Shown: positions 936 through 54,343 of the stretch, piece by piece | How positions within the stretch are numbered: position 1 is the first letter of the stretch | How the letters are laid out: every line of letters starts with the position of its first letter | From: Candidatus Bathyarchaeota archaeon | Lineage (GTDB): Archaea > Thermoproteota > Bathyarchaeia > Bathyarchaeales > Bathycorpusculaceae | Length of the DNA stretch: 64,000 nt | Assembly: GCA_963702095.1 (NCBI GenBank) | Contig: OY969706.1 | Span: 2,240,001 to 2,304,000, forward strand | Direction: 5' to 3' | Position numbers and translations under genes: made by a program | The notes under the pieces: model-generated | What the model saw: the letters and a program-made list of their open reading frames with translations, nothing else | Databases searched by the model: none | Told to the model about the DNA's origin: nothing

Positions 936-3591
936 TTATGCTCGTTTCCTGAGTATGAGTAGTCCAACGACTGCTATTGCAATGATTATAGCGATTGTTG
1001 CACCGACTATGTACATCATGAGGTCTGAAGTTGTTGCATAGTTTACTGCGTTGACGGTTGGTGTGGGTGTTGAGGCTGATTCGTCGACTGCGAAGCTTGT
1101 TTCTGCTGATGATGGCCAGTAGCCGTTGGTTCCAGCGAATGATGCGTAGAGGAGGTATTGGCCTGAAATGTCTGGGACCCATCGGTAGCTGTATGTGCCG
1201 GTTAAGTCAGTTTGTGTTTCGCCGATTTGTCGGTAGTTGCCGTTAGCATCCACCACTGATAGAGTCACAGTGACACCGCTAGCATTTGCGGGTATGGGTT
1301 TCTGCTGGTAGACGTATCCCATCCAGTCTTTCATGCTGCTATCAGAAACGCATGCGACGCCGTCGGGGAATCTTACTGCTTGCTCATCTTGTGTTGTGCC
1401 GCTAGATAAGTCAGTGACTGCGCCTCTGATGACGATGCTTTGTCCTGGTGCTGCTCCCAGATCAGGTGCAGTTACTGTGGTTTTGCTTGCTCCTCTGCCA
1501 ACAACGTAGACTGAGCTGTCATAACTGTTGAACCATGTAGAGAAACCGTCTGCAATTGCGTAGCTTGTGCTGCCGAATTCCATTGTAGCAGAAGAGATTG
1601 TCCAGATTTCTTTGCCGTCAGTTGCGTTAACTGCACGTGCTAAGCCGCCCTTGTAGATGGGAGACGTCCATGTATGTTCACTCGTAACCAAGTAGACTAC
1701 ATCATTGCCGATTGCGTTGACGAATGTTGGTATGTTGCCGTATGGCCAGTTGAAGCCGCTGTTGGTACTGTTACCTTCGCCGCCGTTACCATAAGTCCAG
1801 AGTAGATCGCCTGTTTTCATGTCGTAGCAGTAGAGTATGCCCGCCATTGCCATGCTGTAGAGTTTGCCGTAAGCAATTTGGCCTGATAATACGCCTGCAC
1901 TGGGGCTGCCGTAGTAGTCGAAGGCTGCTTGAGGCTCAGATTGCCAGATTTTTTCACCTGAATCTAAGCTGTAAGCTACCCACATGACGCCTTCTTTTAG
2001 CGATTGTAGGAATACACGGCTATCCCAGTCCACTCCGGCTTGGATGACAGTGTAGTTGTTTGCTGGAGGGTCTAATGTCTTCCACCATGATACTGAGCCG
2101 ATTGTGCCTTTAGTTGAGTCGAGGTTGACAAAGAAGTACGTGTAGGGAGTGCTGCTTGGTGTTGGGAATAAGTTGTTTTCGCCGTTTGAAGGGAATGTAC
2201 CGTTGTAGCATAAGATACCGTCTCCGTATTTGGACATAATTATATTTGTCGGGTTAGTTCCCGCTGTTTTTGTCGGCATTGTGTTTAGCCATGGTACAGA
2301 TATGTTCCAGTCATAGCACCAAGATGCCCCGCCGTCCAAATTCCCGAATTTAGGTGCTGCAGCAGTAATTCCCTCGCCATATATGAAAACTTTAGTTAAG
2401 TTCCACTGACATAAACACCAATCAGGGTTTTCAGCAGTGCCTGCATTAGCCAAGACATATTGTAAGTATTCGCCGTCTGAACCCATAGCCTTTGCACCTG
2501 ACGGAACATTGGTTATGTTAACTACGGCTTTGTCCTGTGTCCGCATCGTAGCCAAGCCAAGTAGTGCCGCTCTTAGCATATAGAATCGGTTGGCAAACGC
2601 CGTGTTCATTTTGTGTTTGTACATCCATGATATAGCCGAAAGACAACGCTGGTATGTCTTTTTCCCAAAGTACTTCGCCTGTACGTAAATCGACGCACGC
2701 TAGTGGCCCTTGACCGCCGTTGTTGCTAAATCCAAAGTTTACGGGTTCTTTGTAGTAGATTTTGCCATTCAATATTATGGGGTTGTCGTATCTGATGATG
2801 TAAGCTGAGCCGTCAAAGTATGTGTTGCCTTGAATTTCATAGTTGTCTCCGCCGACTACACCACCGGCTTGCAGAGCTTTAGTCCACATAACGTGGCCAG
2901 TCTGAGAACCGATAGCATCGCCTGGGAACATTGCCTCGCCGCCCATGAAGCCCATCTGGGCTGAACCAGAAGAGGCGTAGCCACCATAGTTGGGTGCGCC
3001 AGTGCCTAGCCAGTTCGATGAGATGCTCCACCAATCGGTGTTCTCACCATAAATTGGGCGAGTCCAGTATTCAGAAGGCAAAGGATAGCTTGTGATGGCT
3101 GCGGGTATAGGGTCTTCTTGTACGGTTAGAGTAGTGGATGCACTGCTTGGCAAGTAAGTGTCATTTACGTAGGCATTGCCTGCGTCTGAAGCGTATGTTT
3201 CTCCGGGGTAGGTGAAAGTTAAATTATAGGTACCGACTTGGTCTGGAGTGAAAGTGGCAAGCTGAGCAGCGGTTGTGTCTCTGATGGTATCAAAAGTCTG
3301 CGTTGAAACCTCACCGTTAGGCGCAGTAATAGTAAGCTTATAGTTATGGAACCTGAGATTGTCTGTTCCGTACTGTGATCCGAAATAGTAGTTAGTGAGC
3401 ATCAAAAAGACATTCGCTTGTTGCCCAACACCGACTGGGTTAGGCGCAACGGAAATCAATGCATATGTTGGCCACTCGGTTGGAGGATCGTGTGCTAAAG
3501 CTGTTGGCAATAACGTTGCAACTGTTCCAATAGATATGGTTAGGATCATAGCGATTGCGATAGCGATTATTTTCGTTTTAGATAGTTTCAA
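936..3591 (-). CDS. Secreted membrane-anchored PQQ-like beta-propeller surface protein (paralog 1), apparent frameshift near 2530
   Basis: Signal peptide, APNPVGVGQ Ig-like N-terminus, YWTRP motif, WD/PQQ-like repeats, C-terminal TM helix plus RKRA; two overlapping ORFs join on comparison with paralogs. Confidence 0.85.
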
Positions 3592-3760: not shown

Positions 3761-4834
3761 ATGGAGAATCGTCTTTGTGACATAAAACGGGGGAAAACAA
3801 CGAAACCTCTGGACGAAAATGACACTTTGATTCTGAAGAATCTATTAATAGATTCTCGGATGAGTTTCAAAGATCTCGCCGAAAAATGCGGAATTTCCTC
3901 AACTGCAATAATAAGAAGGTACTCCAGATTAAGAGAAGAAGGAATTATTCTAGGCCATCAAATGCATCTTAATCCGCTAAGCGTTGGGTATGAGAGTATA
4001 GCAGAGGCAGGGATACTTACCGATCTATTAGACAGAGAAAAGGTTAAAGAGGCATTAGAGCAAAAAGGGAATTTCTGGGCGGGACCGATTTCGCTTGGCA
4101 AATATGACATTTATGGAAACCTGTTTGCGAAGAAAATACAGGATTTAAACGAATTAATCCAGCGAATAGATGTAAAACCGTACGTAAAAAGTTTAGATGT
4201 CTTAATTTTTTCGGACCTCTGGAATAGCCCATGGCACCCTGAAAATCTTTTGGTTAAACCTGATGAAAAATTAGATGCAAGCTCAAGGCTAGACAAAGTG
4301 CGGAAAGAAAATGAGCCTGTGGCTATGGATGAAACAGACGTTTATGTCATAAGGGCACTGAATAATGATTCCAGGATGTCTTTTAAAGAAATAGCGAGCA
4401 ACCTCAACGCTGCAGTTTCTTCAATTATACAAAGATACCATGCTCTTAAAGAACAAAATGTTTGGACACTTTCAACACTAAAAATTGACATGTTTAAACT
4501 TGGGTACAAGGCAAATGCTGATATTTACATAAGAGTCACCCATCGAAGCGCTCTACCAGACATTGAAACACAACTGCTTGAAATACCCAATTTAACTTTC
4601 ATTGCAAAATTCGTCGGCGGAGCGTACGATCTAAGAGTGGCGGTTGTTATCTCCGATTTTGAAGATTTCTTTGACCTAAAAGAACGAATTCTAGCTATTC
4701 CCAATATTGGGAAAGCGGAGTTCTATTTATTTAGAATAAAAGCGGGTTATCCTTGGCTATACGATCTTATAGGCGATATAATTATCAGGCATTTGCTAGG
4801 ATATGAGAGACCCTCTCTGACTTCAAGGAACTAG
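3761..4834 (+). CDS. Tandem (double) Lrp/AsnC-family transcriptional regulator
   Basis: Two LDExD..IL..L..DSRMSFKxxA HTH-RAM units; divergent from propeller gene. Confidence 0.9.
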   Translation: MENRLCDIKRGKTTKPLDENDTLILKNLLIDSRMSFKDLAEKCGISSTAIIRRYSRLREEGIILGHQMHLNPLSVGYESIAEAGILTDLLDREKVKEALEQKGNFWAGPISLGKYDIYGNLFAKKIQDLNELIQRIDVKPYVKSLDVLIFSDLWNSPWHPENLLVKPDEKLDASSRLDKVRKENEPVAMDETDVYVIRALNNDSRMSFKEIASNLNAAVSSIIQRYHALKEQNVWTLSTLKIDMFKLGYKANADIYIRVTHRSALPDIETQLLEIPNLTFIAKFVGGAYDLRVAVVISDFEDFFDLKERILAIPNIGKAEFYLFRIKAGYPWLYDLIGDIIIRHLLGYERPSLTSRN

Positions 4835-4977: not shown

Positions 4978-5263
4978 GGGGTGGGTTGGGTTTGTGGTTG
5001 GTTGACGGGCAAATTTCCTCTTTGATGGGCCATGCTATTGCGCTTGCATTTTGCTGTTCATCGCTGTCGCTAAGAAAGCACTTGATACATGCTTTCACAT
5101 ACACACCGAGACGGTTTCAACATGGAACCATGCACCGCATGTGAAGAAAAACGGTTATCCCACACCGAAACAGGCAAAGGAAAACGTTGCAACCGCAAAA
5201 AGAAGCCGCCCCACGTGCAGTCTTTTGGCAATTCTAAAACCCTCACACCCACATAAAGAGACA
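4978..5263. repeat. Dispersed intergenic repeat family B, copy 1
   Basis: Homologous to 23241-23413 (same orientation) and 32910-33166 (inverted); shared CCACACCGAA, GTTGCAACC, CACACCCACA and AAAGAGACA-like blocks. Confidence 0.8.
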
Positions 5264-5464
5264 TAACAATTTGCGCTTCAACTGAGGGCAGAAGAAGTAG
5301 GCTGTCGCGGATTTTCGCTGCTTTCGATGGAAAAAAGTTAGTCCAGAAACCTTGACTAAGGCTTAGTCCAGAAACCTTGACAAAAACGCTTTTACCCGCA
5401 GAAAACAAAAGTTTTTTCGGTGAAAAATGTGCCGACCAACCATTATGTGATAAACTCCAGATTG

Positions 5465-7127: not shown

Positions 7128-7967
7128 CTATTTTGCGTACGCTTCCACCAGATCACGTGCGGTAACGATGCCGACCAATCTTCCTTCTCGAGCAACCGGA
7201 AGCCGCCTGATATGTTTGAGTGCCATTATAGCTGCAGCCCGATGCACACTTATATCGGCAGAAACAACCACCAACGGCGAAGAACAACTTGGCCCCACTT
7301 CGGGGAACAAATCTTTGCCTTTCGCCAAGAAGTTGGTGAGCAAGTCACGTTCTGTAAAGATGCCGAATGGTTCTCCTTTGCGCGTGATGATGACGCTTCC
7401 GATTCTCTGTTGTCCCATCATCTTGGCCACATTCAACACCGATGTTTCTTCGTCTGCGCTGACTACTTTCTTAGTCATAAACTCCTCGACTTGGGCTTCT
7501 GTTTCTGGAACATCAGGTAAACTCTTGATTAAATCCGAAGCCGTTATGATGCCAACCAATGTTCCAGCGTCAAACACTGCAAGTCTGCCTTTTCTGCTGG
7601 TCATAAGCTGGGCTGATTCTTTGAGTTTAGCCGTCGATGAAATCCCAGCTAACGGGTAAGACATCACTTCTTCGACTTTTTGGTCGCTCAAAAGCAATCC
7701 GTAAGCCAAAACCTTACTTAGCAAATCCCGCTCGGTAATTATGCCCACGGGAGTCTTATACTTCATGACGATTAAGCTGCCGATGTGTTTTTCACCCATC
7801 AGTCGCGCTGTGGTTTCTAGTGAAGTCTCTGGAGAGGCTGTTGCGATGTTTTTGCTCATTAAGTCTTTTGTTTGGCGGTAGAGGGGCAGGTTGCGTTTGT
7901 ACTGTTCGTAGGCGATGTCGATTACGCTGGGCAAAATTCGTTTAGTTTCAGTTTGAGGATTCGCCAT
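7128..7967 (-). CDS. Four-CBS-domain protein
   Basis: Repeated GIITERDL / GIVTARDL CBS motifs. Confidence 0.9.
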   Translation of the reverse strand: MANPQTETKRILPSVIDIAYEQYKRNLPLYRQTKDLMSKNIATASPETSLETTARLMGEKHIGSLIVMKYKTPVGIITERDLLSKVLAYGLLLSDQKVEEVMSYPLAGISSTAKLKESAQLMTSRKGRLAVFDAGTLVGIITASDLIKSLPDVPETEAQVEEFMTKKVVSADEETSVLNVAKMMGQQRIGSVIITRKGEPFGIFTERDLLTNFLAKGKDLFPEVGPSCSSPLVVVSADISVHRAAAIMALKHIRRLPVAREGRLVGIVTARDLVEAYAK

Positions 7968-21724: not shown

Positions 21725-21851
21725 CTTTTAGATCAGATCCTTGCGGATAAACTGAATACGTGCGTTGATAAAAGCCTATGTTGGCACTAAAAGTTAGCAA
21801 TACACTGCCGCAACTGTTTCAGTGCTAGAAAATTTCTGTTTGCCGGTTTTT

Positions 21852-21950
21852 GGGTATATTGAGGCCTTGGAATAATTAAAGTAAGAAAGATGGAAATGCA
21901 AACCCTATTCCACCGCGAATAGTTAATTCTTCCAAAGCCCTTTCAACCCC
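21852..21950 (-). ncRNA. BHB-closed structured RNA element, diverged orphan copy 8
   Basis: Minus strand reads GGG-GUUG-AAA-GGGCUUUGGAA...UUCCAAGGCCU-CAAU-AUA-CCC; inner UUGCAUUUCCAU retained. Confidence 0.7.
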
Positions 21951-22277
21951 TTGAACAGTTCTGAGCAGCATTTTTCAGTATTTATAATTTGCGACTCACC
22001 TCTTTTATTATGCCTTTTATTTAGGTAAAAGGGGCTAAAACGTTTAATCTTCGTCAATATTAATCAATTAGGCATCTTTTTTAGCAATTAAACCGACATT
22101 TTCACATCCCTCAGAATTCCCTGCGCCATTACTTTGATGATGACTTGGAACGGTAAGATGAGTTCCATTTAACCCATTTGTTAGTAATAAGCTAAGAAAG
22201 CCGAAACTTAGCTTAGTAACCAAACCTAATCTTACAGGAAACCTTTTATCAGAAATGCAGGCTAATCAGAGATTGGA

Positions 22278-23165
22278 ATGAGGAAAATATCGTTAGTAAT
22301 CCTTACAGCAATTATATTGTTAACAATAGCTGAAACACAGCTTAGCAATCAAGCACACGCAAATCCATACAGATATGTCCCACATGTTACCAATATTCCG
22401 CCACCAGCAGGCACACAAGCACCAATAATTTCCATACACACACCACAGAATGGTTCAGCTTATCCAAAAAATATCATCCCGCTAACCTTTGAAGTAATTA
22501 TTCCTAAAACAAATGGAGAGAAATCAATAGGTCAGATAAGTGAGTTATATTATAAAGCCAGTTGGGAACCAAAGGAAATCCAAATTATTGATAGACCATT
22601 TTTTGAGAACACTTCATTCTCAATAGACCTCTATGTTATCTCAGGAGGTAATCTCTCACTCAAAATCTACGCAGTTGGCAATGGTGGTTACGAGAACCGA
22701 ACTGAACTCACAGACTTTGAAAGGCACCAGTATTATGACCAATTTGAAATGAATAGCTCCTCAGCTGTTAGCTTTACTCAAGACTTTCTTCCCCCTAAAA
22801 TCACTGTCCTCTCACCACAGAACAGAAGTTATGAGACTTCAGATGTTGAGTTAAATTTTACAGCTAATGAGGTATTGTCCCAAATTCAATACAGCATAGA
22901 TGGTAAGAAAAACCAAACTACTACAGGGAACATAACTCTAACAGGATTAACAAATGGAGCACACAACATAACTTTCTATGCATCTGACTTAGCAGATAAC
23001 AAGGCATTTCCAGAAACTATTGGCTTTAGCGTAAGAAAACCAGAGCCTTTTCCGATCTTGATTTTTGTAGCTGTTATTGCAGTCTTGTCTGTGGTGATTG
23101 CAGCTTTGGGAATGGCTTTTTTTAGATGGCATCGGAAAAGCTCCAAGGCGGCAACCTCCGCTTAG
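22278..23165 (+). CDS. Secreted Ig-like domain protein with C-terminal membrane anchor
   Basis: Signal peptide, PP.I.VLSP.N..Y, YSIDG, G.HNIT.YA.D and C-terminal TM helix. Confidence 0.75.
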   Translation: MRKISLVILTAIILLTIAETQLSNQAHANPYRYVPHVTNIPPPAGTQAPIISIHTPQNGSAYPKNIIPLTFEVIIPKTNGEKSIGQISELYYKASWEPKEIQIIDRPFFENTSFSIDLYVISGGNLSLKIYAVGNGGYENRTELTDFERHQYYDQFEMNSSSAVSFTQDFLPPKITVLSPQNRSYETSDVELNFTANEVLSQIQYSIDGKKNQTTTGNITLTGLTNGAHNITFYASDLADNKAFPETIGFSVRKPEPFPILIFVAVIAVLSVVIAALGMAFFRWHRKSSKAATSA

Positions 23166-23465: not shown

Positions 23466-23554
23466 CCATGCACAGGCAGAGCATATCTGAAACGCCTAAC
23501 TTTTTCGAAACATGTGTGTCTCATCTAAATATCGCTCAGACACTACATTGACTC
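23466..23554 (-). other. 3' strand of pre-23S processing stem with BHB motif
   Basis: GUCUG-AGCG-AUA-UUUAG pairs with CUAAA-CGCC-AAA-CAGAC at 26586-26602; 23466-23486 is complementary to 26647-26667. Confidence 0.85.
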
Positions 23555-23555
23555 G

Positions 23556-26568
<3,013 letters not shown>

Positions 26569-26571
26569 TAC

Positions 26572-26940
26572 GGGCCAATGGTAGTGTCTGTTTGGCGTTT
26601 AGTGAAACACACATGTTTCAAATATATAGTGTTTTGGCGTCGTTGTATATGCTCTGCCTGTGCATGGTGTCATTTTGAGCGCCAGTAGCGCCCATTCACC
26701 GCTTCACTCCTCATCGTGTTATGGTGGGGAGTTGCATTTACTTGTGTAACCCATGTTACTGGGATTGCATAAGAAGCAGACTCGGCGAATATAAGTGTTA
26801 TGTTACACTTCATCCGCGATTGTCGTCGGTGCCTTATCAGCTTCCGAAGCGCTTCTCCGCATGTGCACCCACATTTTTTTTGGGCAGCATCCCTTAACGA
26901 TAGGGAAACAAACTAAGCATCAAACCCTCAAATAAACCTG
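26572..26940 (-). promoter_or_regulatory. 23S leader with 5' processing-stem strand and putative own promoter
   Basis: Complementary to the trailer; TTTATTT at about 26930-26936 on the minus strand; no 16S between it and the histidine kinase. Confidence 0.6.
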
Positions 26941-39206: not shown

Positions 39207-39303
39207 GTGAGCTTTATAATTTTTTAAGGGCAAAAATCAAAACAAAACTTTTGATCCATTGATATAGCGCTTTGAGGTTAGAAGCAGCAAGTAACTGTTT
39301 AGG

Positions 39304-39414
39304 GGTTTGCTGGGGCTCTGGAACCCGAACTAAAGGAGAAAAGAATGGAAAATGCAACTAAACCATTCTCAACTACCCATGACCGATTAATGTTATCCAG
39401 AGCCCACTCAGCCC
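39304..39414 (-). ncRNA. BHB-closed RNA element, copy 2
   Basis: GG-GCUG-AGU-GGGCUCUGGA...UCCAGAGCCC-CAGC-AAA-CC. Confidence 0.75.
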
Positions 39415-39477
39415 ACATCTTACCAATGCAATTTGATTCCCAAAAAAGGGAAAAGGAAGCTGGTTTATCGATTGATC

Positions 39478-42147
39478 TTAAGGTCGTTTTTTGACTGACA
39501 TCAAGATAACTGCGCCGACGATGGAAATTGCTATAATTACGGCAACAGCAGAACCCAATATAGTCATAGTATTGTCGACCGCTTGTAACGGTTGTGTCGT
39601 TGGCGCTGGTGTCGCTGCTTCGCTAGCATGGAAATATGTCACGGCTGAAGATGGGTAATACGAGTTTGAACCACCAAAGGTAGCAATTATAGTGTAGTCT
39701 CCAGCTATATCGGGGGTCCATGTGAAGCCGTATGAGCCATAGGAGTTCGAAGTTGTTGTGCCAATCTCTCGGTAATTGTTGTTGGAGTCGACGACAGATA
39801 ATGTTACGGTTACACCTGTGGCGTCAGATGGTCGTGGTTGATCTTGGTAGGCGTATTCCATCCATTTGCTCTGGCTTTCTTCAGAAACACATGCTAGACC
39901 ATTTGGGAATTTCTTTGCAACCTCAGACTGTGTTGTACCCGCTGATATGTCTGTTACAGTGCCAGTGATAGTAATTGGTGTAGCAGTAGTCACTCCAACG
40001 TCTGGAACATCTACAGTCAATTTGCTGGGTCCCTTGGCAAAGGCATAAATCTGGTTGTCATAGCAGTTCAACGAGATCAAAGTGTTGTAAGCAATTGCAG
40101 TAGCGACAACATATGTTCCTAACTCTTTCCAGATTAGTGTACCATCTGTTAGGTTAATAGCTAACATCTGTGCACCATGGAACAGCGGTGGGTTGTATTC
40201 ATGTCCTATTGGAAGATATGCAACGTCATTGGTATAAGCTTGGCAACGGAATGTCCACAGTGGCCACATGCCATAGGGGCTTTCGATGCCTGGATCGCCG
40301 ATGAGTGTTGTTGTGTTGGTGTACCATAGTTGTTTGCCAGTCTTTGTTTCAATAGCCCATATGTCGCCGCCTAAACCGGCGATGATAATTTTGCCGTTAG
40401 CTCCAGAGTAGCCAGCTGTTCCACCTAACATTGAATAGGTGCTTGGTTCGCCATTACCGTAGGGGGTTTTAAGTGCTGTTTCCCATGCTTTGGCACCAGT
40501 TCGGCAGTCAATGCCTGTGCTTATCCAGTTTACGTGGTTAGTTATGGATACGATTCCGTCATCAACTATTATTGATGCTCTAGTGAATGGCAGTAGTGAT
40601 TTGCAGTCTGGGTAAGTCAAGTTTTTGGACCACAATGTAGTACCATCAGCGGCATCCATGGAAGCCATTACTAGGTAACCAGTTGATTGGTCGGAAGCGT
40701 GAATTAATCCCGAAGTTAGAATAACAGTGTTGCTGCATAACCGCGATACTGAAAGTGTTGGGGTAATGGTTACGTCATTGACTGTTAAAGGAATTGGTTT
40801 AGCCCACATTAATCCGTAGCCCGCATCAATAGCGTTGTTTGTGGTTGGATACCATAGCCAATCATTGACTAAAGCCTTTGAAAGGTTAAAGCAGCATAAG
40901 GCAGGTGTGGTAATGTTTATCACTTCTTTGACCTGTGGGATTTGGAAACCGACCATCGGTATCATTGGTGTTTGTTGATAGGTTCTGACTTGACCAATAG
41001 TGCGATTGATATAGTATCCGATTAAGTTACCAGTTGCATCGGTTGTTAAAGTCATTGAACTAGCATTGCATATGCTGCATACGTATTTTCCACTTAACGC
41101 AGAGTATAGGTTATATTGGGTTCCAAAGTTTTTGTAAACGATTCCTCCAGTTTCAGCTGCGGGAAGAGCACCAGTAGTTATAACGTACGGACCGACGACA
41201 CCATATGCGTTGACTGTTTTCCATTCGTTAGCCATGCCTGTGGCTAAAATTGAAGTCGTGTTGATAGTGTACAGCGTTTCACCTGTAGCAAGATCGGTGC
41301 AAATGATACCAGATGGGCAACCGTAGCTTTCAGGGTACCAGGTGGAGTACATTTTGTCAGCAATTATAACTGGCGCAAACTGTGGGGTATATTGTCTTGT
41401 TGACCAGTAATGTCCTGATTCTTCGTCGCCACCAGCTTCACCGCCGACTACACCGCCAGTACACCAGACTTTAGTCCAAATGACGTGACCAGAAAGTACT
41501 GAAGCAGTGTAGGGGTTGCATAAGCTTGTTGCATTGTAGTATCCCACTGATCCCCCGAGACCCCATGGACCCATGTACTTGTACCATTCCTGAACGTTCT
41601 GTGCTGAGACGGGTGCTTCCCAATATTCTGTTGGAAGTGGCGTTATTGGATATGCAGTTTGTGTGATGGGCTCTTCTTGTACAGTTAATGTAACGACTTC
41701 GCTTTGGCTTGGCATTTCTTTGAGACCTACAAATCCGTCACCGAGAAGCGCATTTCTAAGTGTGGTTTGTCCACCGTAGAAGAATTGAAAAGTCCAATTG
41801 CCTACTTGGTCAGGTACAAAGTTGAAGTATGATCCACCAGTTGTGTCGCCTGTTATTGGACCTCTTGTTTCTACATTACCGTCTGGGTCAGTGATTTTAA
41901 CTGTCATGTTTGTTACTGCTTCGCCGGATTGTATTGAAGTTGCTAGAAAGAAGTTGACGTTGACTGTTTGACCTACCCCAATTGGGTTAGGAGCTACGCT
42001 GATAAAAGCATACGTCGGAATTTCTGTTCCAGGAGCAAATGTTGTATCAGCTAATGCCGAAGACAGCAATGTTGAGCCAGCAATCAGAAGAATAAGCAGC
42101 GTTGCGATTGCACTTTTTATATTTCTTGCATCAATTTTAAATTTCAT
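39478..42147 (-). CDS. PQQ-like beta-propeller surface protein (paralog 2)
   Basis: Intact 889 aa; signal peptide, HEYNPPLFHG and C-terminal TM helix plus KKRP. Confidence 0.88.
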   Translation of the reverse strand: MKFKIDARNIKSAIATLLILLIAGSTLLSSALADTTFAPGTEIPTYAFISVAPNPIGVGQTVNVNFFLATSIQSGEAVTNMTVKITDPDGNVETRGPITGDTTGGSYFNFVPDQVGNWTFQFFYGGQTTLRNALLGDGFVGLKEMPSQSEVVTLTVQEEPITQTAYPITPLPTEYWEAPVSAQNVQEWYKYMGPWGLGGSVGYYNATSLCNPYTASVLSGHVIWTKVWCTGGVVGGEAGGDEESGHYWSTRQYTPQFAPVIIADKMYSTWYPESYGCPSGIICTDLATGETLYTINTTSILATGMANEWKTVNAYGVVGPYVITTGALPAAETGGIVYKNFGTQYNLYSALSGKYVCSICNASSMTLTTDATGNLIGYYINRTIGQVRTYQQTPMIPMVGFQIPQVKEVINITTPALCCFNLSKALVNDWLWYPTTNNAIDAGYGLMWAKPIPLTVNDVTITPTLSVSRLCSNTVILTSGLIHASDQSTGYLVMASMDAADGTTLWSKNLTYPDCKSLLPFTRASIIVDDGIVSITNHVNWISTGIDCRTGAKAWETALKTPYGNGEPSTYSMLGGTAGYSGANGKIIIAGLGGDIWAIETKTGKQLWYTNTTTLIGDPGIESPYGMWPLWTFRCQAYTNDVAYLPIGHEYNPPLFHGAQMLAINLTDGTLIWKELGTYVVATAIAYNTLISLNCYDNQIYAFAKGPSKLTVDVPDVGVTTATPITITGTVTDISAGTTQSEVAKKFPNGLACVSEESQSKWMEYAYQDQPRPSDATGVTVTLSVVDSNNNYREIGTTTSNSYGSYGFTWTPDIAGDYTIIATFGGSNSYYPSSAVTYFHASEAATPAPTTQPLQAVDNTMTILGSAVAVIIAISIVGAVILMSVKKRP

Positions 42148-43085: not shown

Positions 43086-43111
43086 TCTTAAGCGCTCTTA
43101 TTAGATTAGAG

Positions 43112-43216
43112 GTTTGCTGGGGCTCTGGAACCCGATTAAGGAAGAGAAGAATGGAAAATGCAAATAACCATTCTCAACTACCCGCGATTATTAGATTTTC
43201 CAGAGCCCGCTCAGCC
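43112..43216 (-). ncRNA. BHB-closed RNA element, copy 3
   Basis: G-GCUG-AGC-GGGCUCUGGAA...UUCCAGAGCCC-CAGC-AAA-C; bulge variant AGC, weak outer helix. Confidence 0.7.
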
Positions 43217-43276
43217 ACTACTTAGCTGTTCTAATCCCAAAAAAAGGGAAAGGGAAATTATTTCAATCAATTGTTT

Positions 43277-45889
43277 TTATGGTCGTTTCCTAAGCGCTAG
43301 TATACCGAAGATTGCGACTGCGATTATGACCGCTATGCCTGTTCCTACGATAGTCATTGTATAGTCAGCTTGCACTGGTATCTGTGGCTGTGCCGTAGGT
43401 TCTGGTGCATTATCTACTTGTATGGCAGATTCGGCGTATGAGCCGTAATAGGATTTAGAGCCTGCAAATGTAGCAAGGATAGTGTATTTACCGGGAACCT
43501 CCGGAGTAAACACATAGCTATAACTGCCGCTTGTATCACTGGTAGTTCTACCGACTTCATAGAAGTTGTTGTTTGGATCAATCACTGACAAAACCACCTC
43601 AACACCTGTAGCGTTGGTGGGCTGTACCTGATCCATCCACAGATAAGCCATCCATGCACTTTGGGATTCGTCAGAAACTGCGGGAACACCATTGGGGAAA
43701 CGCGTTGTCAGTTCAGTATTTTGTGAATAACCTGGACTATTATCTGTAACTGTGCCTTCCACAATTACGCTGTTGCCATTCACTGAAGTCTTCGGTGATG
43801 CTGTGACAGTTGTTGAGCTTTGACCTTTACCGAAAGCGTAAAGTTGCATATCATAGCTGTTGAGGCCTACAAGGATGCCGTCTGAGATGATGATGTTGCT
43901 TGGGGTAATATAAGCATCAGCCCAGAAAGGCACACTAAATATTTCAGTACCATCAGTCGCATTGATGCAGCGAATCATTGCTCCGCGCCAGAAAGGCTGG
44001 TTTGGCGAGTGCTCACTTGAGGTAAAGTATAGTTTTCCGTCAGACATGCACCCGTATATTAGCGGGTAATTCGGGTAGGGAGATTCTGTTCCAATGGTGT
44101 CAGCAACGTATTTCCAAAGAACATTACCGTTAGTGACGTTGTAAGCGTTTACTTCACCGCCCATGCCATAGGTTATCAACATACCGTCGTAGATTATGCT
44201 ACTCATAGTGAAGAAGTTCCATTCAGTCTCTGGGTCGCTATGCCACACCTGTTGTCCAGTCGTCAAGTCATAAGCATACCATGTCCTTAAGTCATCGTTT
44301 TTAAAGAAGAAGCGGTTGTATTCCGGATACACTTTATCGAAGGTCATAGATAAGTTGCCGGGGGATGTTGATGGCGGCGTAAAAGTAATATTACTCAGCA
44401 GAGTGCCTTCAGAACCTGTCTTCAGGCTTACAGTCCAAAGTTGACCCGTTGTAGTCACTGAAGTCCCTAAGCCTACAGGATTTGAATCTGAAGAGCTTAT
44501 GCCTGTTGTTCCACCGATGATAGATTCGCCTTCACGAATTGACATTATCGAACCAGCTAAGTCAGGCACTGAGACGTTCAATGAGTAACCGTTGGCGCCG
44601 TTTACAGTTGCACTGCCTCTTGCTAAACCGAATTCGCTATCAGCAGCTACAAAGTTGCCAAATGGATCACTTGCACCGAATAGTACAGCTCTTGAAGTAT
44701 TCCAAATTTGCAAATAGCGGTTGGGGTTTGTAGCGTTTCCAATATTAACAATGTTGTAACGCAATACGCTTCCGTCTTTGCCCGTAACAGTTGTGCCGCT
44801 GCCAGCGTTAGTTATGTTGAAAATCGCCTTGTTCGAGTATGGATCATATGCAGTCCATGTGGTGCCGCTGATTGACCATAGATATGGGAAGACTCCGTGC
44901 ACGTTCATAGAATGGTAGTTCATCAACGAAGCAAAGTTTAAGGTTCCTGATCGCCAGAGGTCTGTTAGCTCTTCGCCTGAATACAAATCGTAGACGTAAA
45001 CGCCTGCATTTTGGTCCCATGTGTTGATGTTTCTTTGGCAGTAAATTTTTCCGTCGACTATCACTGAGGGCTGACTAAATGCTTGGTATTCTTTGCCGAT
45101 CCAAAAGCCTTGTGCTGATTCAAAGCGAGCGTCGACAGCGCCACCGACCCAAAACGGCGTTGCCCATAGTACGTGTCCACTCTCTGGAGCTGAACCGTAG
45201 GCATAGTTAGCTGTTCCACCGTAAGAGCCTGTTGGGTAATACTGAGCACCAGAAGAGGTTCCCAGCCAGTTGCCTAAAATTGGCCACCAATCTCTGCTCA
45301 TACTGTTTACTGGACGAGCCCAATACTCAGTTGGAAGCGGAGATTCAACCCACGTCTCAATCGGATCAGCCTGAACTGTCAAAACGAACGGCTCACTAGT
45401 ACTATCCCCGAAGGTATCGTTGAGATAGGCTTGGTTATATTGTGACTGCGTTGTTCCTGGGCGTAACCCTAATCCCAAATCCCAAGTTATGGTCTCTTTG
45501 GAGTGGTGAGCTACAAATGTGTAGTTACCCTCTTGATCAGGCACATAAACAAAGGAGGCTGCGCCCGCTGCATCAGACATTATAGTGCGTGTTTCGTTAG
45601 TGTTGTCAGGCTTGGTGATTGTTAAGTCGAAAGTCCATCTGCCGCCATATCCATAATTATCAGCTGTCGGCGGCCACCAGTTAAGCCAGACAACGACAAG
45701 CGCGTCTTGACTTACACCAATAGGATTCGGTGACACTGTGACGTAGGTAAAGGTATCATAATTCCATGCGGGAGTGTGCGATTGAGCCATTGGCAAAGCA
45801 ATAAGTGAGATTACAGCGGTTACCATTAGAATCAAGGCCAGCATCGTAAGTTCTGTCTTACCAAGTTTTATTTGTCTAATTTCTTTCAT
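43277..45889 (-). CDS. PQQ-like beta-propeller surface protein (paralog 3)
   Basis: Intact 870 aa; SEHSP motif and C-terminal TM helix plus RKRP. Confidence 0.88.
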   Translation of the reverse strand: MKEIRQIKLGKTELTMLALILMVTAVISLIALPMAQSHTPAWNYDTFTYVTVSPNPIGVSQDALVVVWLNWWPPTADNYGYGGRWTFDLTITKPDNTNETRTIMSDAAGAASFVYVPDQEGNYTFVAHHSKETITWDLGLGLRPGTTQSQYNQAYLNDTFGDSTSEPFVLTVQADPIETWVESPLPTEYWARPVNSMSRDWWPILGNWLGTSSGAQYYPTGSYGGTANYAYGSAPESGHVLWATPFWVGGAVDARFESAQGFWIGKEYQAFSQPSVIVDGKIYCQRNINTWDQNAGVYVYDLYSGEELTDLWRSGTLNFASLMNYHSMNVHGVFPYLWSISGTTWTAYDPYSNKAIFNITNAGSGTTVTGKDGSVLRYNIVNIGNATNPNRYLQIWNTSRAVLFGASDPFGNFVAADSEFGLARGSATVNGANGYSLNVSVPDLAGSIMSIREGESIIGGTTGISSSDSNPVGLGTSVTTTGQLWTVSLKTGSEGTLLSNITFTPPSTSPGNLSMTFDKVYPEYNRFFFKNDDLRTWYAYDLTTGQQVWHSDPETEWNFFTMSSIIYDGMLITYGMGGEVNAYNVTNGNVLWKYVADTIGTESPYPNYPLIYGCMSDGKLYFTSSEHSPNQPFWRGAMIRCINATDGTEIFSVPFWADAYITPSNIIISDGILVGLNSYDMQLYAFGKGQSSTTVTASPKTSVNGNSVIVEGTVTDNSPGYSQNTELTTRFPNGVPAVSDESQSAWMAYLWMDQVQPTNATGVEVVLSVIDPNNNFYEVGRTTSDTSGSYSYVFTPEVPGKYTILATFAGSKSYYGSYAESAIQVDNAPEPTAQPQIPVQADYTMTIVGTGIAVIIAVAIFGILALRKRP

Positions 45890-46989: not shown

Positions 46990-47073
46990 TTTTCAAGGTC
47001 AAAAATTTTTCTAGTATCACCCCCAGAAGAATCAATCTAAATTTGTAAACCTTAGTTTTATTCTTTTGTAAAG

Positions 47074-47180
47074 GGTTTGCTGGGGCTCTGGAACCCGAAC
47101 TAAAGGAGAAAAGAACGGAAAATGCAACTAAACCATTCTCAACCGCGACTACGTTAATTTTATCTAGAGCTTCTCAGCCA
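47074..47180 (-). ncRNA. BHB-type RNA element, copy 4 (degenerate 5' arm)
   Basis: 5' arm GCUG-AG-AAGCUCUAGA has mismatches and a 1-nt deletion; core and 3' arm conserved. Confidence 0.6.
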
Positions 47181-47244
47181 ACAGTTATAAATGCAATTTT
47201 GATCCCAAAAAAGGGGGAAAAGGGAAATTGTTTGTTTTTTGTGT

Positions 47245-49860
47245 TTATGGCCGTTTTCTAATCAAGAGTACGCCGACTATCGCTATCGAGATGATTATGG
47301 CGATTACACCGATTGCTAAGTACGTTAGAATTTCACTAGTTGTTGCTAAGTCTGTTTGAACCTGCTGTGTAGGTGCTGGTGTGGCTGCTTCACTTGCATA
47401 GAATGCTGTTTGCGCTGACGCTGGATAGTACGAGTTGGAGCCGGCAAAGCTTGCGATTATCTGGTAGTTGCCTGAAATGTCGGGTGTCCATGTAAAGCCG
47501 AAGGTGCCGCTCGCAGTACTCGTTGTTTGTCCAATTTCGCGGTAGTTGCCGTTTGAGTCGATAACACTAATCGTAATGGGCACACCAGTGATGTTGTAAG
47601 GCATATCTTGCTGCTGGTAGACTGCTTCCATGAAAGCGCTTTGGCTTTCGTCAGAGACACAGGGCAATCCGTAGGGGTATTTGGATGATACTAGAGTTGA
47701 TTCTGTGCCTGGCGAGAAGTCCAAGATTGAGCCTGAGATGGTAATCGGTGTAGAGGTAGTTACTCCGACTGCTGGGGCCTCAACTGTGATACCGCTTGCA
47801 CCTTTGCCGAAGCAGTAAAGCATGTTGTCGTAGGCATTTAGGGATACAAGTTTGCTGTATGCGATGGCTGTGGAGGTGACGCTTGTGTCCAATGTGCGCC
47901 AGATGAGCGAGCCGTCCGTTAAGTTGAGTGCATAGAGTTGGCATCCGTGGAATAGCGGTGGGTTGTATTCATGACCGCCTGTGATGTATGCAACATTATT
48001 GGATTCACAACCGCTTGCAAAACTCCAAAGTGGCCAGATGTTGTAGGGTGTCTCAATTCCAGATGGACCTTGGAGTTTTGTTGTGTTGGAGTACCAGTTT
48101 ATCTCGCCAGTTTTACTATTAACGCTCCAGATGTCTCCGCCTAAACTGTTGACTATGAACGCGTTGTTTGCCTGATACAATTTCATACCAAAGACGTCGT
48201 ATATGTTTGGTTCTGCGCCGTTATCGCCTGTCAGCTGTACTTCCCATGCTTTACTGCAATCCTTTGTGTTTATACCAACGAAATAGCCGTTGACGTTGTT
48301 GCAGATACCGTAGATGCCGTCGCCTGCTACGGTTCCAGTTCTACTCCAAGGCAGCATTGCATTTATCGTCGGATATGTCAAGTTTGCAGAGCCAACTACG
48401 GCACCGGTGTCTTGATTCATTGTTACAATGCAAGTGTAGCCTTTTTGTCCCGTGCTCGGGTTTCCTGCGGTCAAAACCAATTCATTGCCAGTTATTGCAC
48501 TCAATCCAAGGGCGGGGTCAATGGAGACACCGCTGATATTGTTTGGCACTGGCACATCCCACATATAACCTGAGCTAAAGGCGCGGACAGTATTTTTAGA
48601 TACGCTAAACTGACCCGCTGTAAATCCTGCAGCCATGGTCAGGTTAACGCAGGTTAAGTGTGGACCAGTGTTTGTTACAATAGCGTCTGTTGATTGTGTC
48701 GGATGTACGATTTGTGTACCTGCTGTGTTGTTGATAAAGTAGCCGATCAAGTTACCGTTTTCGTCGTTCCGGATTTTTAAATCAGAACCGTTTACTATGC
48801 TGAGAACGTAACTTCCTGTGACAGCGTCGAAGAGGTTCCATTGTGTTCCTGTATTGCGAGGGATGGAACCGCCAGTTTCGCCTGCAGCACAAGTGCCTGT
48901 GGTCCATAGGAATGGTCCGAGAACACCGTACTCGTTCAGGTTTTGATGGAAAGTAACCATGCCGCACCGCAATGTACTCGTAGTGTTGAGCAGCCAAAGA
49001 GTCTCACCAGTATACACGTCGATGGCTATGATGCCTTGTTTACCGGCAGTGCCTGTAGTTGAAGTAAACCATGTGGAGTATAGTATGCCGTTGATGATGA
49101 CAGGAGCGTATCTGGGCTGATACTGGAATGTTGACCAGTAGTGAGACGTAACTTCGTTTCCGCCAAGTTCTCCGCCTGCTACACCGCCGCCGCACCAAGC
49201 TTTCTTCCACAGAACGTGGCCGGATAATACGTCTTCGGTGTATGGATTGTAGTTGCTAGTACTGTTGTATGCGCCTGTGATAGTGAAGGAACTAGCGCCG
49301 GCATATCCATACCAAGCGCCAGTAATCGAGTACCAGTTTTGCGAGTTTTGCGCGGATACCGGTGTTTCCCAATAAGTAGCTGGGAGTGGTGTGAAGGGGT
49401 ATGAGCGTCCAATGTTAGGTTCCTCTTGGACAATAAGCGTTGTTGGTTTACTTGTACTAGCATCAGCGATCATTCCGTTTGTCAATGTTTGTCCTTTGAA
49501 GTAGAATTGTATTGTGTAGTTGCCGACCTTGTCTGGGGCAAAGTACGCACAGGTGCCTTCAGTCGTGTCGGATGTATATGGTCCTAAGGTGGTATTAGTT
49601 CCATCGGGTTTAACTATGTCTACGTAGAAGGGTGTCGCTACTTCACCAGTTGGATATGGAGTTGCAAGGAATATGTTGAGGGTGACTTGTTGACCGACTC
49701 CAGCAGGGTTAGGAAAGACGTTAAGGTAAGCAAAGGTTGGCATGTGGGTCCCTGTGGGGAAAGTGCTATCTCCGTAGGCTGGATGCACTGCGATAACCAT
49801 TGAAAGCAACATTATTATAGCGAGAAAAGCAATCGTAATTTCTTTTTTACGTATTTTCAT
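47245..49860 (-). CDS. PQQ-like beta-propeller surface protein (paralog 4)
   Basis: Intact 871 aa; HEYNPPLFHG and C-terminal TM helix plus RKRP. Confidence 0.88.
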   Translation of the reverse strand: MKIRKKEITIAFLAIIMLLSMVIAVHPAYGDSTFPTGTHMPTFAYLNVFPNPAGVGQQVTLNIFLATPYPTGEVATPFYVDIVKPDGTNTTLGPYTSDTTEGTCAYFAPDKVGNYTIQFYFKGQTLTNGMIADASTSKPTTLIVQEEPNIGRSYPFTPLPATYWETPVSAQNSQNWYSITGAWYGYAGASSFTITGAYNSTSNYNPYTEDVLSGHVLWKKAWCGGGVAGGELGGNEVTSHYWSTFQYQPRYAPVIINGILYSTWFTSTTGTAGKQGIIAIDVYTGETLWLLNTTSTLRCGMVTFHQNLNEYGVLGPFLWTTGTCAAGETGGSIPRNTGTQWNLFDAVTGSYVLSIVNGSDLKIRNDENGNLIGYFINNTAGTQIVHPTQSTDAIVTNTGPHLTCVNLTMAAGFTAGQFSVSKNTVRAFSSGYMWDVPVPNNISGVSIDPALGLSAITGNELVLTAGNPSTGQKGYTCIVTMNQDTGAVVGSANLTYPTINAMLPWSRTGTVAGDGIYGICNNVNGYFVGINTKDCSKAWEVQLTGDNGAEPNIYDVFGMKLYQANNAFIVNSLGGDIWSVNSKTGEINWYSNTTKLQGPSGIETPYNIWPLWSFASGCESNNVAYITGGHEYNPPLFHGCQLYALNLTDGSLIWRTLDTSVTSTAIAYSKLVSLNAYDNMLYCFGKGASGITVEAPAVGVTTSTPITISGSILDFSPGTESTLVSSKYPYGLPCVSDESQSAFMEAVYQQQDMPYNITGVPITISVIDSNGNYREIGQTTSTASGTFGFTWTPDISGNYQIIASFAGSNSYYPASAQTAFYASEAATPAPTQQVQTDLATTSEILTYLAIGVIAIIISIAIVGVLLIRKRP

Positions 49861-51346: not shown

Positions 51347-51377
51347 TAGTGAAAAAGGTCTTTGCACTGTGCTCCCG

Positions 51378-51498
51378 AAATGGTTTGCTGGGGCTCTGGA
51401 ACCCGTTTAAGGAAGAAAAGAATGGAAAATGCAACTAAACCATCCTTCAACTACCCTACTACTAGGTTAACTTGATCCAGAGCCCACTCAGCCCATTT
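51378..51498 (-). ncRNA. BHB-closed RNA element, copy 5 (full hBHBh' geometry)
   Basis: AAAUGG-GCUG-AGU-GGGCUCUGGA...UCCAGAGCCC-CAGC-AAA-CCAUUU; 6-bp outer helix. Confidence 0.8.
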
Positions 51499-51561
51499 TT
51501 TATCCATTACATTTATTGTTCCCAAAAAAAGGGAAAGGGAAAGTTGTTTGTTACCTGTTTT

Positions 51562-54343
51562 TTATGGTCGTTTTCTAAGCAGAAGCAGTGTGGCTATTGC
51601 AATTGCAATTATGATAGCGACAGCAGTAACTGCCATGTACATCAATAGGTCACTGGTTGTAGCTAAGCCAGTTTGAGGCGGCTGTGTTGGCGCTGCTGTT
51701 GCTGCTTCACTTGCATAGAGTGCTGTTGAAGCCGAAGCTGGATAATACGAGTTGGAGCCTGAGAAGCTTGCGTAGATTTTATAGTTTCCAATAATGTCTG
51801 GTGTCCATGTATAGCTGAAAGTACCGTCAGCATCGCTTGTAGTTGTGCCAATCTCGCGGTAGTTGCCATTAGAGTCAACAACAGCTAACGTGATTGGAAC
51901 TCCAATAGTATTCGATGGTAACGGTTGTTGCTGGTAGACATACTCCATCCATTTGCTTTGGCTTTCATCTGAAACACATGGCACGCCATTGGGGAATCTT
52001 AATGCGACTTCGTTTTGCTTTGTCATTGTAATGTCAGGTGAAGTAATTGCTCTTGTGCCAGGCGAAATATCCATTATTGTACCTCTTATAGTCAACGGTG
52101 TTGCAGTTGTTAAGCCGACATCAGGGGCTGTAACGGTCATAGTGCATGGACCCTTGCCCCAAGCGTATATCTGGTTGTCATAAGCGTTCATTGACAGCAC
52201 AATGTTGTAAGCGACTGCGGTAGACCTAATGTACATGCCTAATTCGCTCCAAACTAACGAGCCATCAGTCATGTTGAGTGCTATCATCTGTGAGCCATGG
52301 AATAGCGGTGGGTTATACTCGTGACCAACGGTGAGGTACGCCACATTAGTCGTGTAGCCAGGTGAGCTGAAAACCCACAGTGGCCAAACGTCATAGGGCG
52401 TTTCAATGCCTGGGTCACCGATCAGTGTAGTTGTGTTCGTGTACCAGAGTTCAGCGCCTGTATGAGAGTCAAAGCACCATACATCTCCTCCTAAGCCGTA
52501 CCAGAGTAATTTACCGTTTACGAATTGGTTGCTGATTCCAAAGTTGTCGTAGACGTTTGGTGTTCCGTCTCCGTAAGGTGTCTCAAGTGTTGTGGTCCAT
52601 AGTTTATCTCCGGTTCTTGTACTGTATGCTGCCATTTCCCAATTAACTAGGTTGACAGTTACGAATTGTCCATCTCCGAATGCGCGGCTTGTTCTGGTGA
52701 AGGGCAGAAGTTCTGTTGATCCGCCTGCATATGTATAGTTCTTGCACCATAACTCGGCGCCAGTGTTCAAGTCCATTGCACAGTAAATTAGCCAGCCAGG
52801 TACTTCGTCACCGCCTCCTTGCATGTGGATGAATCCAGCGCTAAGCACCAATTCGTTGCCAGTTATCGAACTCAGCGAGAGAGAGAGCCTTGGAGTAGTT
52901 GGAGATGTAGATATCGGTGTGCCATCATCAGTTGTAGTTGGTACGTCTACGGTCCACATGACTCCGTCTTGCCAGTTGTATGCTCTGTTTAGGGTTGGTC
53001 CCCATCCAAAGGCTGCGGCGCATGCCAAGAGCCATGGTTAGGTTAACGCATGTTAAGTGCGGTCCAGTGGTGTTCACAAGGACTTGTTGAATTCCTGTGC
53101 CGCCGCCTGAACCTGCAGCTGCGGATGTTCCTGGATAAGGATAGGTAGGTTCGTTTATGCCTGCGGTATTGTTAATGTAGTAGCCCATCAAGTTTCCGTT
53201 GTCGTCTTCTCTGAGCGTCACTGAGGAACCGTTGACGATGCTGCATATGTATTTTCCATCCCAGCCTGAATAGAGGTTCCACTGCGTTCCACGGTTATTG
53301 TATACTACTCCGCCTGTGTCTGCTGCGGGAAGCGTTCCAGTCGTCCAAATATAGGGACCAACAGCACCGTACTGATTAGCCATGTGGAATTTAGTGACCA
53401 TTCCGCATTTCAAGGCGTTTGTTGTGTTTATTGTCCAAAGTGTTGCGCCAGTGTATAAGTCTGAGCATATGATACCGTGAGCTAAGTTTGTGGCTTCTGG
53501 GTATGATGTTGAGTACATTCTGCCGTTTATTATGACTGGTGCATACTGAGGCTGGTACTGCCTAGTTGACCAGTAGCTGCCTGAGTCTTCTGATCCGCCG
53601 CTTGTTCCAACGCTTTCACCGCCAGCTACACCACCTGAAAGCCACTCTTTTGTCCAAAGAACGTGACCTGAATAGACAGAATCAGTGTAGGGGTTGTATC
53701 GTGTGGTAGCATTGTATGCGCCAGTTTGTGCGAAAGTGATTGAGCCAAGGCGAAGCCAGTCTCCTGTAACCTTAGACCATTCCTGCACGTTCTCTGCGCT
53801 GACGGGGGTTTGCCACCAATCAGTTGGAAGTGGAGTAATCGGATAGGCAGTGCGCTCTAGCGGTTCCTGTTGAACGGTCAGAACGTAAGGTTTGCTTACG
53901 CTAGGCATTTCATAGAGACTACCATAGCCTCCCTCTGTAATGTTGCGTCCAGTTAATTGTTGTCCGCCATAGTAGAATGTGAATGTGTAGTTGCCGACTT
54001 TATCTGGGACAAAGTTGAAGAATGTTCCGCCTGTGGTGTCTCCAGTGTAGGGTCCGAAGGTTTTTGGGGTGCCATCTGGGTCGACCATTTTAACGGTCAT
54101 GTTAGTTGGGCGTTCACTGGTTTCTAGCGCTGATGATACGAAGAAGTTGACGTTGACTGTTTGTCCGACACCCACTGGGTTTGGAGCTACGTTGATGAAA
54201 GCATATGTTGGGACTTGATAGTTTTCGGGGAATAAGACTTGTGCGAATGTGCTTGAGGTTAATGCCATAGAAATTGTCAAAGAAGCTATTAGAAATGTTG
54301 CTAGCAATGTAATTATTTTATTTTTATTGAATTTTGTTTGCAT
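51562..54343 (-). CDS. PQQ-like beta-propeller surface protein (paralog 5), apparent frameshift near 53025
   Basis: Two overlapping ORFs join collinearly with paralogs 2 and 4. Confidence 0.85.

Follow-up and report, generated by a model that had tools for sequence, protein, structure and literature searches.

The bulge-helix-bulge (BHB) motif is best known in the Archaea from tRNA introns and from the stems of pre-rRNA, on which the splicing endonuclease EndA and RtcB act. The archaeal tRNA-Trp intron holds a box C/D guide RNA that is released from a BHB intron. According to those parts of PMC12918454 that we draw upon, 23S rRNA is circularised in all archaea examined, including Bathyarchaeia. 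Beyond tRNA and rRNA, the corresponding parts of PMC7714728 (2020) give two BHB substrates, the cbf5 intron and the 5' untranslated region (UTR) of HVO_1309; the piece excised from the latter was found circular and was cut in vitro. Free tRNA introns of yeast are described in PMC13079951 as repressing mRNAs by base pairing. Here we report a BHB-flanked RNA element located at positions 21852-21950, minus strand, of a 64,000-nucleotide stretch of contig OY969706.1 from a Candidatus Bathyarchaeota archaeon (the window, to which positions refer unless a contig is named). As this element has no beta-propeller gene directly upstream, we term it the orphan. On balance we favour the explanation that it is a stand-alone and diverged representative of a family of small structured RNAs, present in Bathyarchaeia in many copies, the RNA being excised by splicing endonuclease and circularised by RtcB, with a loop that is antisense to the starts of beta-propeller genes.

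Read directly, the minus strand of the orphan is GGG-GUUG-AAA, an 11-bp helix enclosing a 57-nucleotide (nt) loop, and CAAU-AUA-CCC, as described in the original prediction. It is matched by the family model (R1) with 75 bits and an E value of ~1e-15. The outer helix is formed by GGG (21950-21948) and CCC (21854-21852), the central helix by GUUG (21947-21944) and CAAU (21861-21858), and the bulges are AAA (21943-21941) and AUA (21857-21855), the 5' and 3' halves of the BHB occupying 21941-21950 and 21852-21861, respectively. In the inner helix the 5' arm GGGCUUUGGAA (21930-21940) is paired with the 3' arm UUCCAAGGCCU (21862-21872). The loop core (21877-21914) contains a hairpin, GGUGGAA (21914-21908) with UUCCAUC (21895-21889), followed by a pyrimidine tract that extends to 21877. 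None of the 16 stem pairs is disrupted: 13 are Watson-Crick, three are G-U and there are no others. Compared with the family consensus, two C-G pairs have become U-A, one in the central and one in the inner helix, and three pairs are G-U or U-G; the earlier reading of these substitutions, with no pair broken and two 3-nt bulges, is thus borne out. Against shuffled sequences the fold has a z score of -3.2 on the minus strand and -1.5 on the plus strand, and the hairpin taken alone is only moderately unusual.

The arrangement of outer helix, 4 bp, bulge and inner helix in the orphan is that of two other BHB structures in the same genome, and it is found on the minus strand only; the plus strand of the element gives the mirror image of a BHB. 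The intron of tRNA-Met, as called by ARAGORN, reads CUGGG-CUCA-UAA-CAGCGC...GUGCUG-UGAG-AUA-CCCAG, and its exon borders follow the second base of either bulge. In the pre-23S stem a 5' strand, CUAAA-CGCC-AAA-CAGACACUAC (26581-26602, minus), is paired with a 3' strand, GUAGUGUCUG-AGCG-AUA-UUUAG (23525-23546, minus). The bulges of this stem are AAA and AUA, which, as had been pointed out, are also those of the orphan, and one pair of its central helix is C.A. Two 3-nt bulges placed 4 bp apart are present in the orphan and are kept in nearly all of the 71 family copies that we aligned, copies c4 and g100 having a 1-nt deletion at the 5' bulge. The flanking helices are of at least 2 bp: the outer helix of the orphan has 3 bp, the GG/CC pairs are formed in 63-68 of the 71 copies, and the inner helix extends over 10-11 bp. 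The genome encodes the enzymes for such processing, with two splicing-endonuclease loci (PF01974; 97.8 and 75.3 bits) and one RtcB locus (PF01139; 600 bits). The endonuclease paralogs lie ~6.4 kb apart on the contig (1265482-1265718 and 1272147-1272401), and presumably form a heterotetramer of broad specificity.

Further features of these comparison objects may be recorded here. The 23S rRNA gene (23549-26575) has no adjacent 16S gene, and beyond the BHB its stem continues in a 21-bp outer helix (CCAUGCACAGGCAGAGCAUAU / AUAUGCUCUGCCUGUGCAUGG). Among the other ARAGORN calls (contig 1553484-1555302, 382549-382665 and 1531137-1531292) are a tRNA-Leu with a 1725-nt intron, which may be an artefact or an intron carrying an insert, and Asn and Arg tRNAs with introns at non-canonical positions.

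The orphan was originally taken to be the eighth and only solitary copy, a view that does not survive a search of the whole 2.94-Mb genome, in which nhmmer finds 30 copies and a covariance model, built from 26 of the genome's nhmmer copies, finds 31. Approximately 21 of these 31 belong to a module that starts with a gene end (...RKRP-stop) and continues through a C/T-rich tract, a T6-7 run and a further 22-30 nt to the BHB. About ten copies lack the gene end and T-run, hence the orphan is not unique. The module copies lie 33-95 nt past a gene that ends in a transmembrane (TM) helix and LRKRP, always in the sense of that gene, and the same arrangement of gene end, T-run and element is found in 24 of the 29 best copies from other genomes. 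Homology among the copies stops sharply at the last base of the outer helix, at the 3' end of the 3' arm, while in most copies it extends upstream of the 5' arm through AAAUGCAUUGGAUAAAAAUGU and the T-run into the last codons of the gene. Among related genomes the model matches 31 of 61 including this one, that is, 28 of 36 others of the genus and both genomes of genus g16, which belongs to another family; the 22 remaining genomes of the order gave no match. Of 151 genomes sampled evenly across the class, 12 were matched, again including this one; these include 7 of 15 in family f1 and 3 of 5 in f7, together with one weak match in f24 on a fragmented assembly.

Covariation had been expected to emerge from a larger alignment, and this is what we observe. 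We aligned 71 copies with MAFFT, blind to structure (alignment A5); 26 are from this genome and 45 from 30 other genomes, drawn from several hundred model matches (~300 in the related-genome search alone). In A5, 93.8% of the cells are paired and 10 of the 16 BHB pairs are doubly changed, including 9 of the 10 inner-helix pairs. There are 67 double-change cells compared with 17.6 +/- 9.3 in shuffles, none of 500 shuffles reaching as high, and sliding the partner columns leaves 9-20. A model-fitted alignment of 37 copies (A3) gives 16 of 23 pairs doubly changed and 80 cells against 22.9 +/- 5.7. Within this genome the copies differ too little to be informative (8 cells versus 2.4 +/- 1.4). Between genomes the sequence of the inner helix varies freely yet its pairing is kept, which supports selection for pairing as judged from these alignments. 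The sense strand can fold into a canonical BHB motif, and in two taxonomic families this motif is retained as the inner helix covaries. The central helix, by comparison, is GCUG/CAGC in 68 of the 71 copies, with a single variable pair (C-G in 68, U-A in two and U-G in one), and there is next to no variation in the 3' bulge AAA or in the outer GG/CC pairs. As a separate observation, the 5'-terminal GGGCUGAG and the 3'-terminal CAGCAAACC, as found for example in the copy at 39299-39419, hardly vary throughout the two taxonomic families.

The orphan has an ortholog in the nearest relative (L054:400-506), 134 nt upstream of a debranching-enzyme gene whose product is 89% identical; in the window the corresponding gene (GDE_N/GDE_C) starts at 21724, 127 nt downstream of the orphan, close to the 130 nt first estimated. 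A model search of 58 Bathyarchaeia debranching-gene loci found the orphan upstream of the gene only in this relative, and at one further locus (L082) an unrelated family copy is situated downstream of the gene on the opposite strand. The element is identical to its ortholog at 91 of 99 positions (91.9%). The segment 21955-21995, which holds the promoter-like sequence CGCAAA (21993-21988) and TTATAAA (21987-21981, read directly where originally placed), is identical at 36 of 41 positions (87.8%), whereas identity is 31% in the 13 nt immediately upstream (21996-22008), 43% in the 48 nt downstream of the orphan (21800-21847) and 43-46% further up- and downstream. Such a contrast indicates that the orphan itself is under constraint. 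Measured from its centre, the TTATAAA box precedes the first G of the BHB by ~34 nt, and the orphan is probably transcribed independently from the CGCAAA-TTATAAA region (21981-21993, minus), to judge from this conservation. A profile built from the 115-nt upstream segments of 20 gene-linked copies was also compared with the 200 nt upstream of the orphan. It gave no match (18 of 300 shuffles gave any match, at most 3.3 bits), so that the orphan does not appear to be a relic of a gene-linked copy and its promoter-like region is its own. Further upstream, between the promoter-like box and a divergent gene (22278-23165), a 44-nt block at 22009-22052 (minus; ATTAAACGTTTTAGCCCCTTTTACCTAAATAAAAGGC...) contains a 7-bp hairpin, CCTTTTA/TAAAAGG, and is 90.9% identical to the nearest relative, the surrounding intergenic DNA being 46-61% identical.

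The best-conserved unpaired segment of the family is UUGCAUUUU...CUUUUCUCCUU, with variants across genomes. In a typical copy the antisense of the loop UUGCAUUU...CUUUUCUCCUU consists of a Shine-Dalgarno (SD) sequence, an A-rich spacer and AUG-CAA, and the antisense of the orphan loop core likewise resembles a ribosome-binding site followed by AUG-CAA. The start regions of the propeller genes resemble this antisense, for example AAGGAGAUAAAAAUG or AAGGAAGAAAAGAAAAAAAUGCAAAC. With a 29-nt core, the mean duplex energy is -14.8 kcal/mol for 25 family starts and -11.3 kcal/mol for 2017 other SD-led starts (Mann-Whitney p = 6e-6, the paralogous family starts not being independent observations). Reversed and shuffled 29-nt cores give no advantage to the family starts. 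Starts of the form xUG-CAA are found in 8 of the 25 family genes and in 24 of the 2017 others. A lineage-specific variant, GAAGGAAUGAA...AUGAAAAAA, is common to the antisense core (GAAGGAAUGAAAAAAUGAAAAAAC) and the family gene starts of genus g16; the comparison of loop and start region across genomes covers ~15 pairs and was made by eye.

A pathway can be proposed for the explanation that we favour. The CGCAAA-TTATAAA box would drive transcription of the orphan from a start within a few nucleotides of 21950, on its upstream side. Splicing endonuclease would cut after the second base of each bulge, at 21942/21941 and 21856/21855, by analogy with the borders of the tRNA-Met intron, which would release the 86-nt product (21941-21856) that the original prediction anticipated. 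RtcB would then close an 86-nt circle in which 21856 is joined to 21941, with the predicted junction ...CCUCAAUAU|AGGGCUUUGG... In the same manner gene-linked copies could give circles of ~90-110 nt from the read-through 3' regions of the propeller surface-protein mRNAs, with a predicted circle junction ...CCCCAGCAA|UGGGCUC... and flanks joined as GGGCUGAG|ACC. Excision and circularisation are well motivated by the likeness to the tRNA intron and the pre-23S stem. More speculatively, since the loop is antisense to sequence of the surface-protein start type, the excised RNA would pair with those start regions and damp or co-ordinate their translation.

Several observations weigh against this explanation. 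In gene-linked copies the T6-7 run, a typical archaeal termination signal, separates the gene from the element and no canonical promoter is evident there, so co-transcription is uncertain. The antisense idea does not pass a more stringent test, in which 42-43-nt cores were ranked against 5244 candidate starts: with a typical copy, family genes came 65th, 124th, 166th and lower, and for the orphan core the best family gene was no better than 1078th. Duplex-energy ranking with such long cores is unspecific, and spurious GC-rich duplexes win. A 13-mer of the orphan antisense that matches a family gene start (contig 1720210) is one of 16 matches at 11 places, and is suggestive only. Because the long-core ranking is unspecific and the paralogs are not independent, we regard antisense function of the excised RNA as a hypothesis with some support from sequence complementarity. 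In addition, the SD-complementary motif of the orphan is degraded to UUAC and its CAGC-AAA has turned into CAAU-AUA. The outer helix of the family is merely 2-3 bp, the central helix and outer pairs are so nearly invariant as to be uninformative on covariation, and the wobble pairs of the BHB helices in this genome, considered below, pick no strand.

The alternative that survives best, though we think it unlikely, is that the family is a structured 3' UTR element, with a few stand-alone loci, which serves as a stabilising or terminating hairpin or as a site for a protein reading GGGCUGAG / CAGCAAACC, and whose likeness to a BHB is incidental. The short outer helix would suit such an element, as would its position directly behind the T-run past the stop codon. 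Conservation of GCUG/CAGC, AAA and GG/CC goes far beyond what the endonuclease needs for recognition, and it is unexplained because the endonuclease substrates in the tRNA and rRNA of this genome have other sequences. Shape alone is also a poor guide. A generic scan for BHBs (2+4+8 Watson-Crick pairs) gives 22 matches in the genome, eight in the family and 14 elsewhere, and an order-2 random genome likewise yields 14; no further convincing BHB cassettes were seen in the genome at that stringency. As BHB-shaped motifs are not rare at moderate stringency, the case for a substrate rests on conservation of the family, and the orphan locus is set apart from chance by its match to the family model and its conservation in the relative. 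Against an incidental likeness, the 3+3 bulges, the 4-bp spacing and the handedness are retained in nearly all 71 copies and in two taxonomic families while the inner helix varies, as would be predicted were selection acting on the geometry itself, and this geometry equals that of the genome's own tRNA intron.

It is rather less likely that the orphan is a recently disabled and drifting copy of a functional family, which has lost the invariant CAGC-AAA and its anti-SD. Its score of 75 bits compares with 97-129 for typical copies and is among the lower full-length scores in the genome. Relative to the ortholog there are three changes inside the otherwise invariant CAGCAAA, as well as a C-to-A change in the pyrimidine motif that turns the anti-SD from UUCC into UUAC; the changes in CAGCAAA include that of the bulge from AAA to AUA and a C-to-U change that gives a G.U pair. 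Against decay, 16 of 16 pairs and both 3-nt bulges are intact. Furthermore, in L054 the family CAGC-AAA is kept opposite GUUG, so that one pair is U.G, and inner pair 6 is C.A, whereas the window has U-A at both; two half-changed pairs were thus completed in the window lineage, and of the eight positions that differ from the ortholog, two re-establish Watson-Crick pairing. The 91.9% identity, against ~45% in the flanks, argues in the same direction, though this figure also reflects the other lineage and the common ancestor.

Slightly less probable again is a DNA-level element akin to MITEs (miniature inverted-repeat transposable elements) or REPs (repetitive extragenic palindromes), a palindrome, mobile or recombinogenic and perhaps active in single-stranded form, that has spread through the genome and been duplicated together with the surface-protein genes. 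The ~31 dispersed copies with inverted arms and the abrupt end of homology at the 3' end of the 3' arm are compatible with such an origin. The original prediction held that selection acts on RNA structure rather than on a DNA palindrome; selection on pairing stands, but double changes preserve a palindrome in double- or single-stranded DNA equally well and do not on their own exclude it. Nor do wobble pairs serve as the strand test that was proposed, since among the BHB-helix cells of the genome's 26 aligned copies there are 15 G-U and 13 A-C, the latter reading as G-U on the opposite strand, and copy 4 has three A.C mismatches on the minus strand. The counts in other genomes (27 G-U versus 11 A-C) come from copies selected with a model that is itself biased towards G-U. 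In the internal hairpin the balance is towards the sense strand, with 12 G-U to 4 A-C in the genome and 17 to 6 across species, and the variants that copies 4 and 5 carry there are indeed minus-strand wobbles (pair 64:83, U-G, and pair 62:85, G-U). Given the near-equal counts, wobbles are at most weak evidence of strand. Better arguments are the minus-only handedness of a tRNA intron, the constant placement of the element in the sense of the upstream gene, and the conserved promoter-like box. A mobile palindrome fits poorly with arms that are not terminal, homology continuing for 20-30 nt upstream of the 5' arm and mostly through the T-run into the last codons, and with the two 3-nt indels needed to align the arms as inverted repeats. 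In flanks inspected by eye, neither the orphan nor other gene-less copies show a target-site duplication. The fixed orientation relative to the upstream gene, the retention of the orphan at an orthologous site with ~92% identity against ~45% in the flanks, and the persistence of the family across genera with a conserved loop motif also speak against this alternative.

It is highly improbable that the plus strand is the functional one, carrying a ribosome-binding site and AUG of a small protein (MQ...), since, although typical copies read AAGGAGAAAAGA-AUG...AAAAUGCAA in the best-conserved part of the element, that strand gives the mirror-image BHB and the fold z score of only -1.5, and among the 71 copies 31 reading frames stop after 1-17 codons, 31 are open to the end of the element and nine have no AUG, close paralogs differing by frameshifts and having M-Q alone in common. 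Other identities were set aside informally: an integron attC site (there are no R'/R'' core sites at the ends), a box C/D RNA (no C/D boxes), a k-turn (no G.A pairs after the bulge) and an origin from tRNA (position '33' would be C).

Seven gene-linked copies are present in the window, all on the minus strand and 53-68 nt past the stops of large minus-strand paralogs. The products of these genes are PQQ_2/BamB-like beta-propeller proteins that have a signal peptide and, at the C terminus, a TM helix ending in LRKRP. Copy 1 (764-879; 126 bits) lies 54 nt past the stop of a propeller-gene fragment and copy 2 (39299-39419) 57 nt past that of gene 39478-42147 (889 aa, PQQ_2 propeller). Copies 3 (43106-43222) and 4 (47069-47185, the copy with the A.C mismatches, which are in its BHB arms) follow genes 43277-45889 and 47245-49860, copies 5 (51377-51499) and 6 (56219-56341) follow genes 51562-54343 and 56412-58985, and copy 7 (61476-61587) is located behind a gene that starts beyond the end of the window (62146-64000). 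The paralogs at 936-3591 and 51562-54343 (minus) each consist of two overlapping frames (936-2624/2518-3591 and 51562-53028/52928-54343), which suggests frameshifts and hence pseudogenes or assembly errors; the element is intact downstream of both. In other genomes some elements occur in tandem on the same strand, 20-45 nt apart: G168:C15:7270-7386 and 7421-7537, G013:C3:48598-48710 and 48729-48818, G193:C1:4352-4473 and 4515-4630, and G089:C8:5026-5138 and 5167-5281.

Searching Rfam 15 with gathering thresholds gave no match at the orphan, the best sub-threshold hit being rli45 on the other strand (23 bits compared with a gathering threshold of 60), and permissive thresholds gave no match for copy 2. 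We found no such family in the literature on BHBs, circular RNA, repeats, Bathyarchaeia and introns, the circular-RNA supplements of PMC7714728 and PMC12918454 excluded, and consider the BHB-flanked RNA family to be new. If the explanation that we favour is correct, archaea make a dedicated and probably circular class of small RNAs with the splicing machinery, and the family would provide the first candidate riboregulator for an uncultivated and globally abundant lineage. A more far-reaching proposal, which we put forward tentatively and regard as unlikely on present evidence, is that Bathyarchaeia release small circular antisense RNAs through the tRNA-splicing machinery behind surface-protein genes, the loop of each circle masking the ribosome-binding site and start of its own and paralogous genes. 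This would allow feedback or mutually exclusive expression within the surface-protein repertoire, with stand-alone copies that have their own promoters setting a baseline of repression. The family in any case offers dozens of natural variants per genome as a test set for the requirements of the endonuclease and for action in trans of excised 'introns', and the orphan and its ortholog hold nearly all of the natural variation in the central 4-bp helix (two U-A and one U-G versus 68 C-G).

The family shares properties with several known systems and differs from each. Like bacterial 3'-UTR small RNAs and REP palindromes, the elements form hairpins, are repeated behind many genes and share the orientation of the gene whose stop codon they closely follow. 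In contrast to these, release would be by the tRNA-splicing machinery instead of RNase E, and the structure is a BHB of ~100 nt as opposed to a simple palindrome of 20-40 nt. Archaeal MITEs (reviewed in PMC10969869) are also dispersed repeats of ~100 bp with inverted arms; the arms of the family, however, are not terminal and require two 3-nt indels to align, no target duplications are visible, and the orientation behind one gene family is fixed. The tRNA-Trp intron guide RNA and the yeast tRNA introns resemble our proposal in that the excised 'intron' is the acting product, which in yeast, from what is stated in PMC13079951, is antisense to mRNAs. Unlike these functional introns, the family shows no box C/D motifs, its host transcript is not a tRNA, and its proposed target is the start region of paralogous genes. 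With archaeal tRNA introns and pre-rRNA stems it has in common two opposite 3-nt bulges 4 bp apart, flanking helices, handedness and the presence of the enzymes, but it is not part of a tRNA or rRNA, numbers ~31 near-identical cassettes per genome and has a sequence-conserved central helix and one conserved bulge, a loop motif of its own and processing that is here predicted. The closest parallels are the HVO_1309 5' UTR of Haloferax volcanii (PMC7714728) and the cbf5 intron of Crenarchaeota (PMC2738675), in which a BHB is likewise found in or near a protein-coding transcript. These BHBs are single-copy, lie in a 5' UTR or coding region and yield an excised piece that has no known function, whereas the family described here is multi-copy and conserved across genera, is mostly located 3' of a stop codon behind a T-run, and includes members that stand alone with a promoter-like box.

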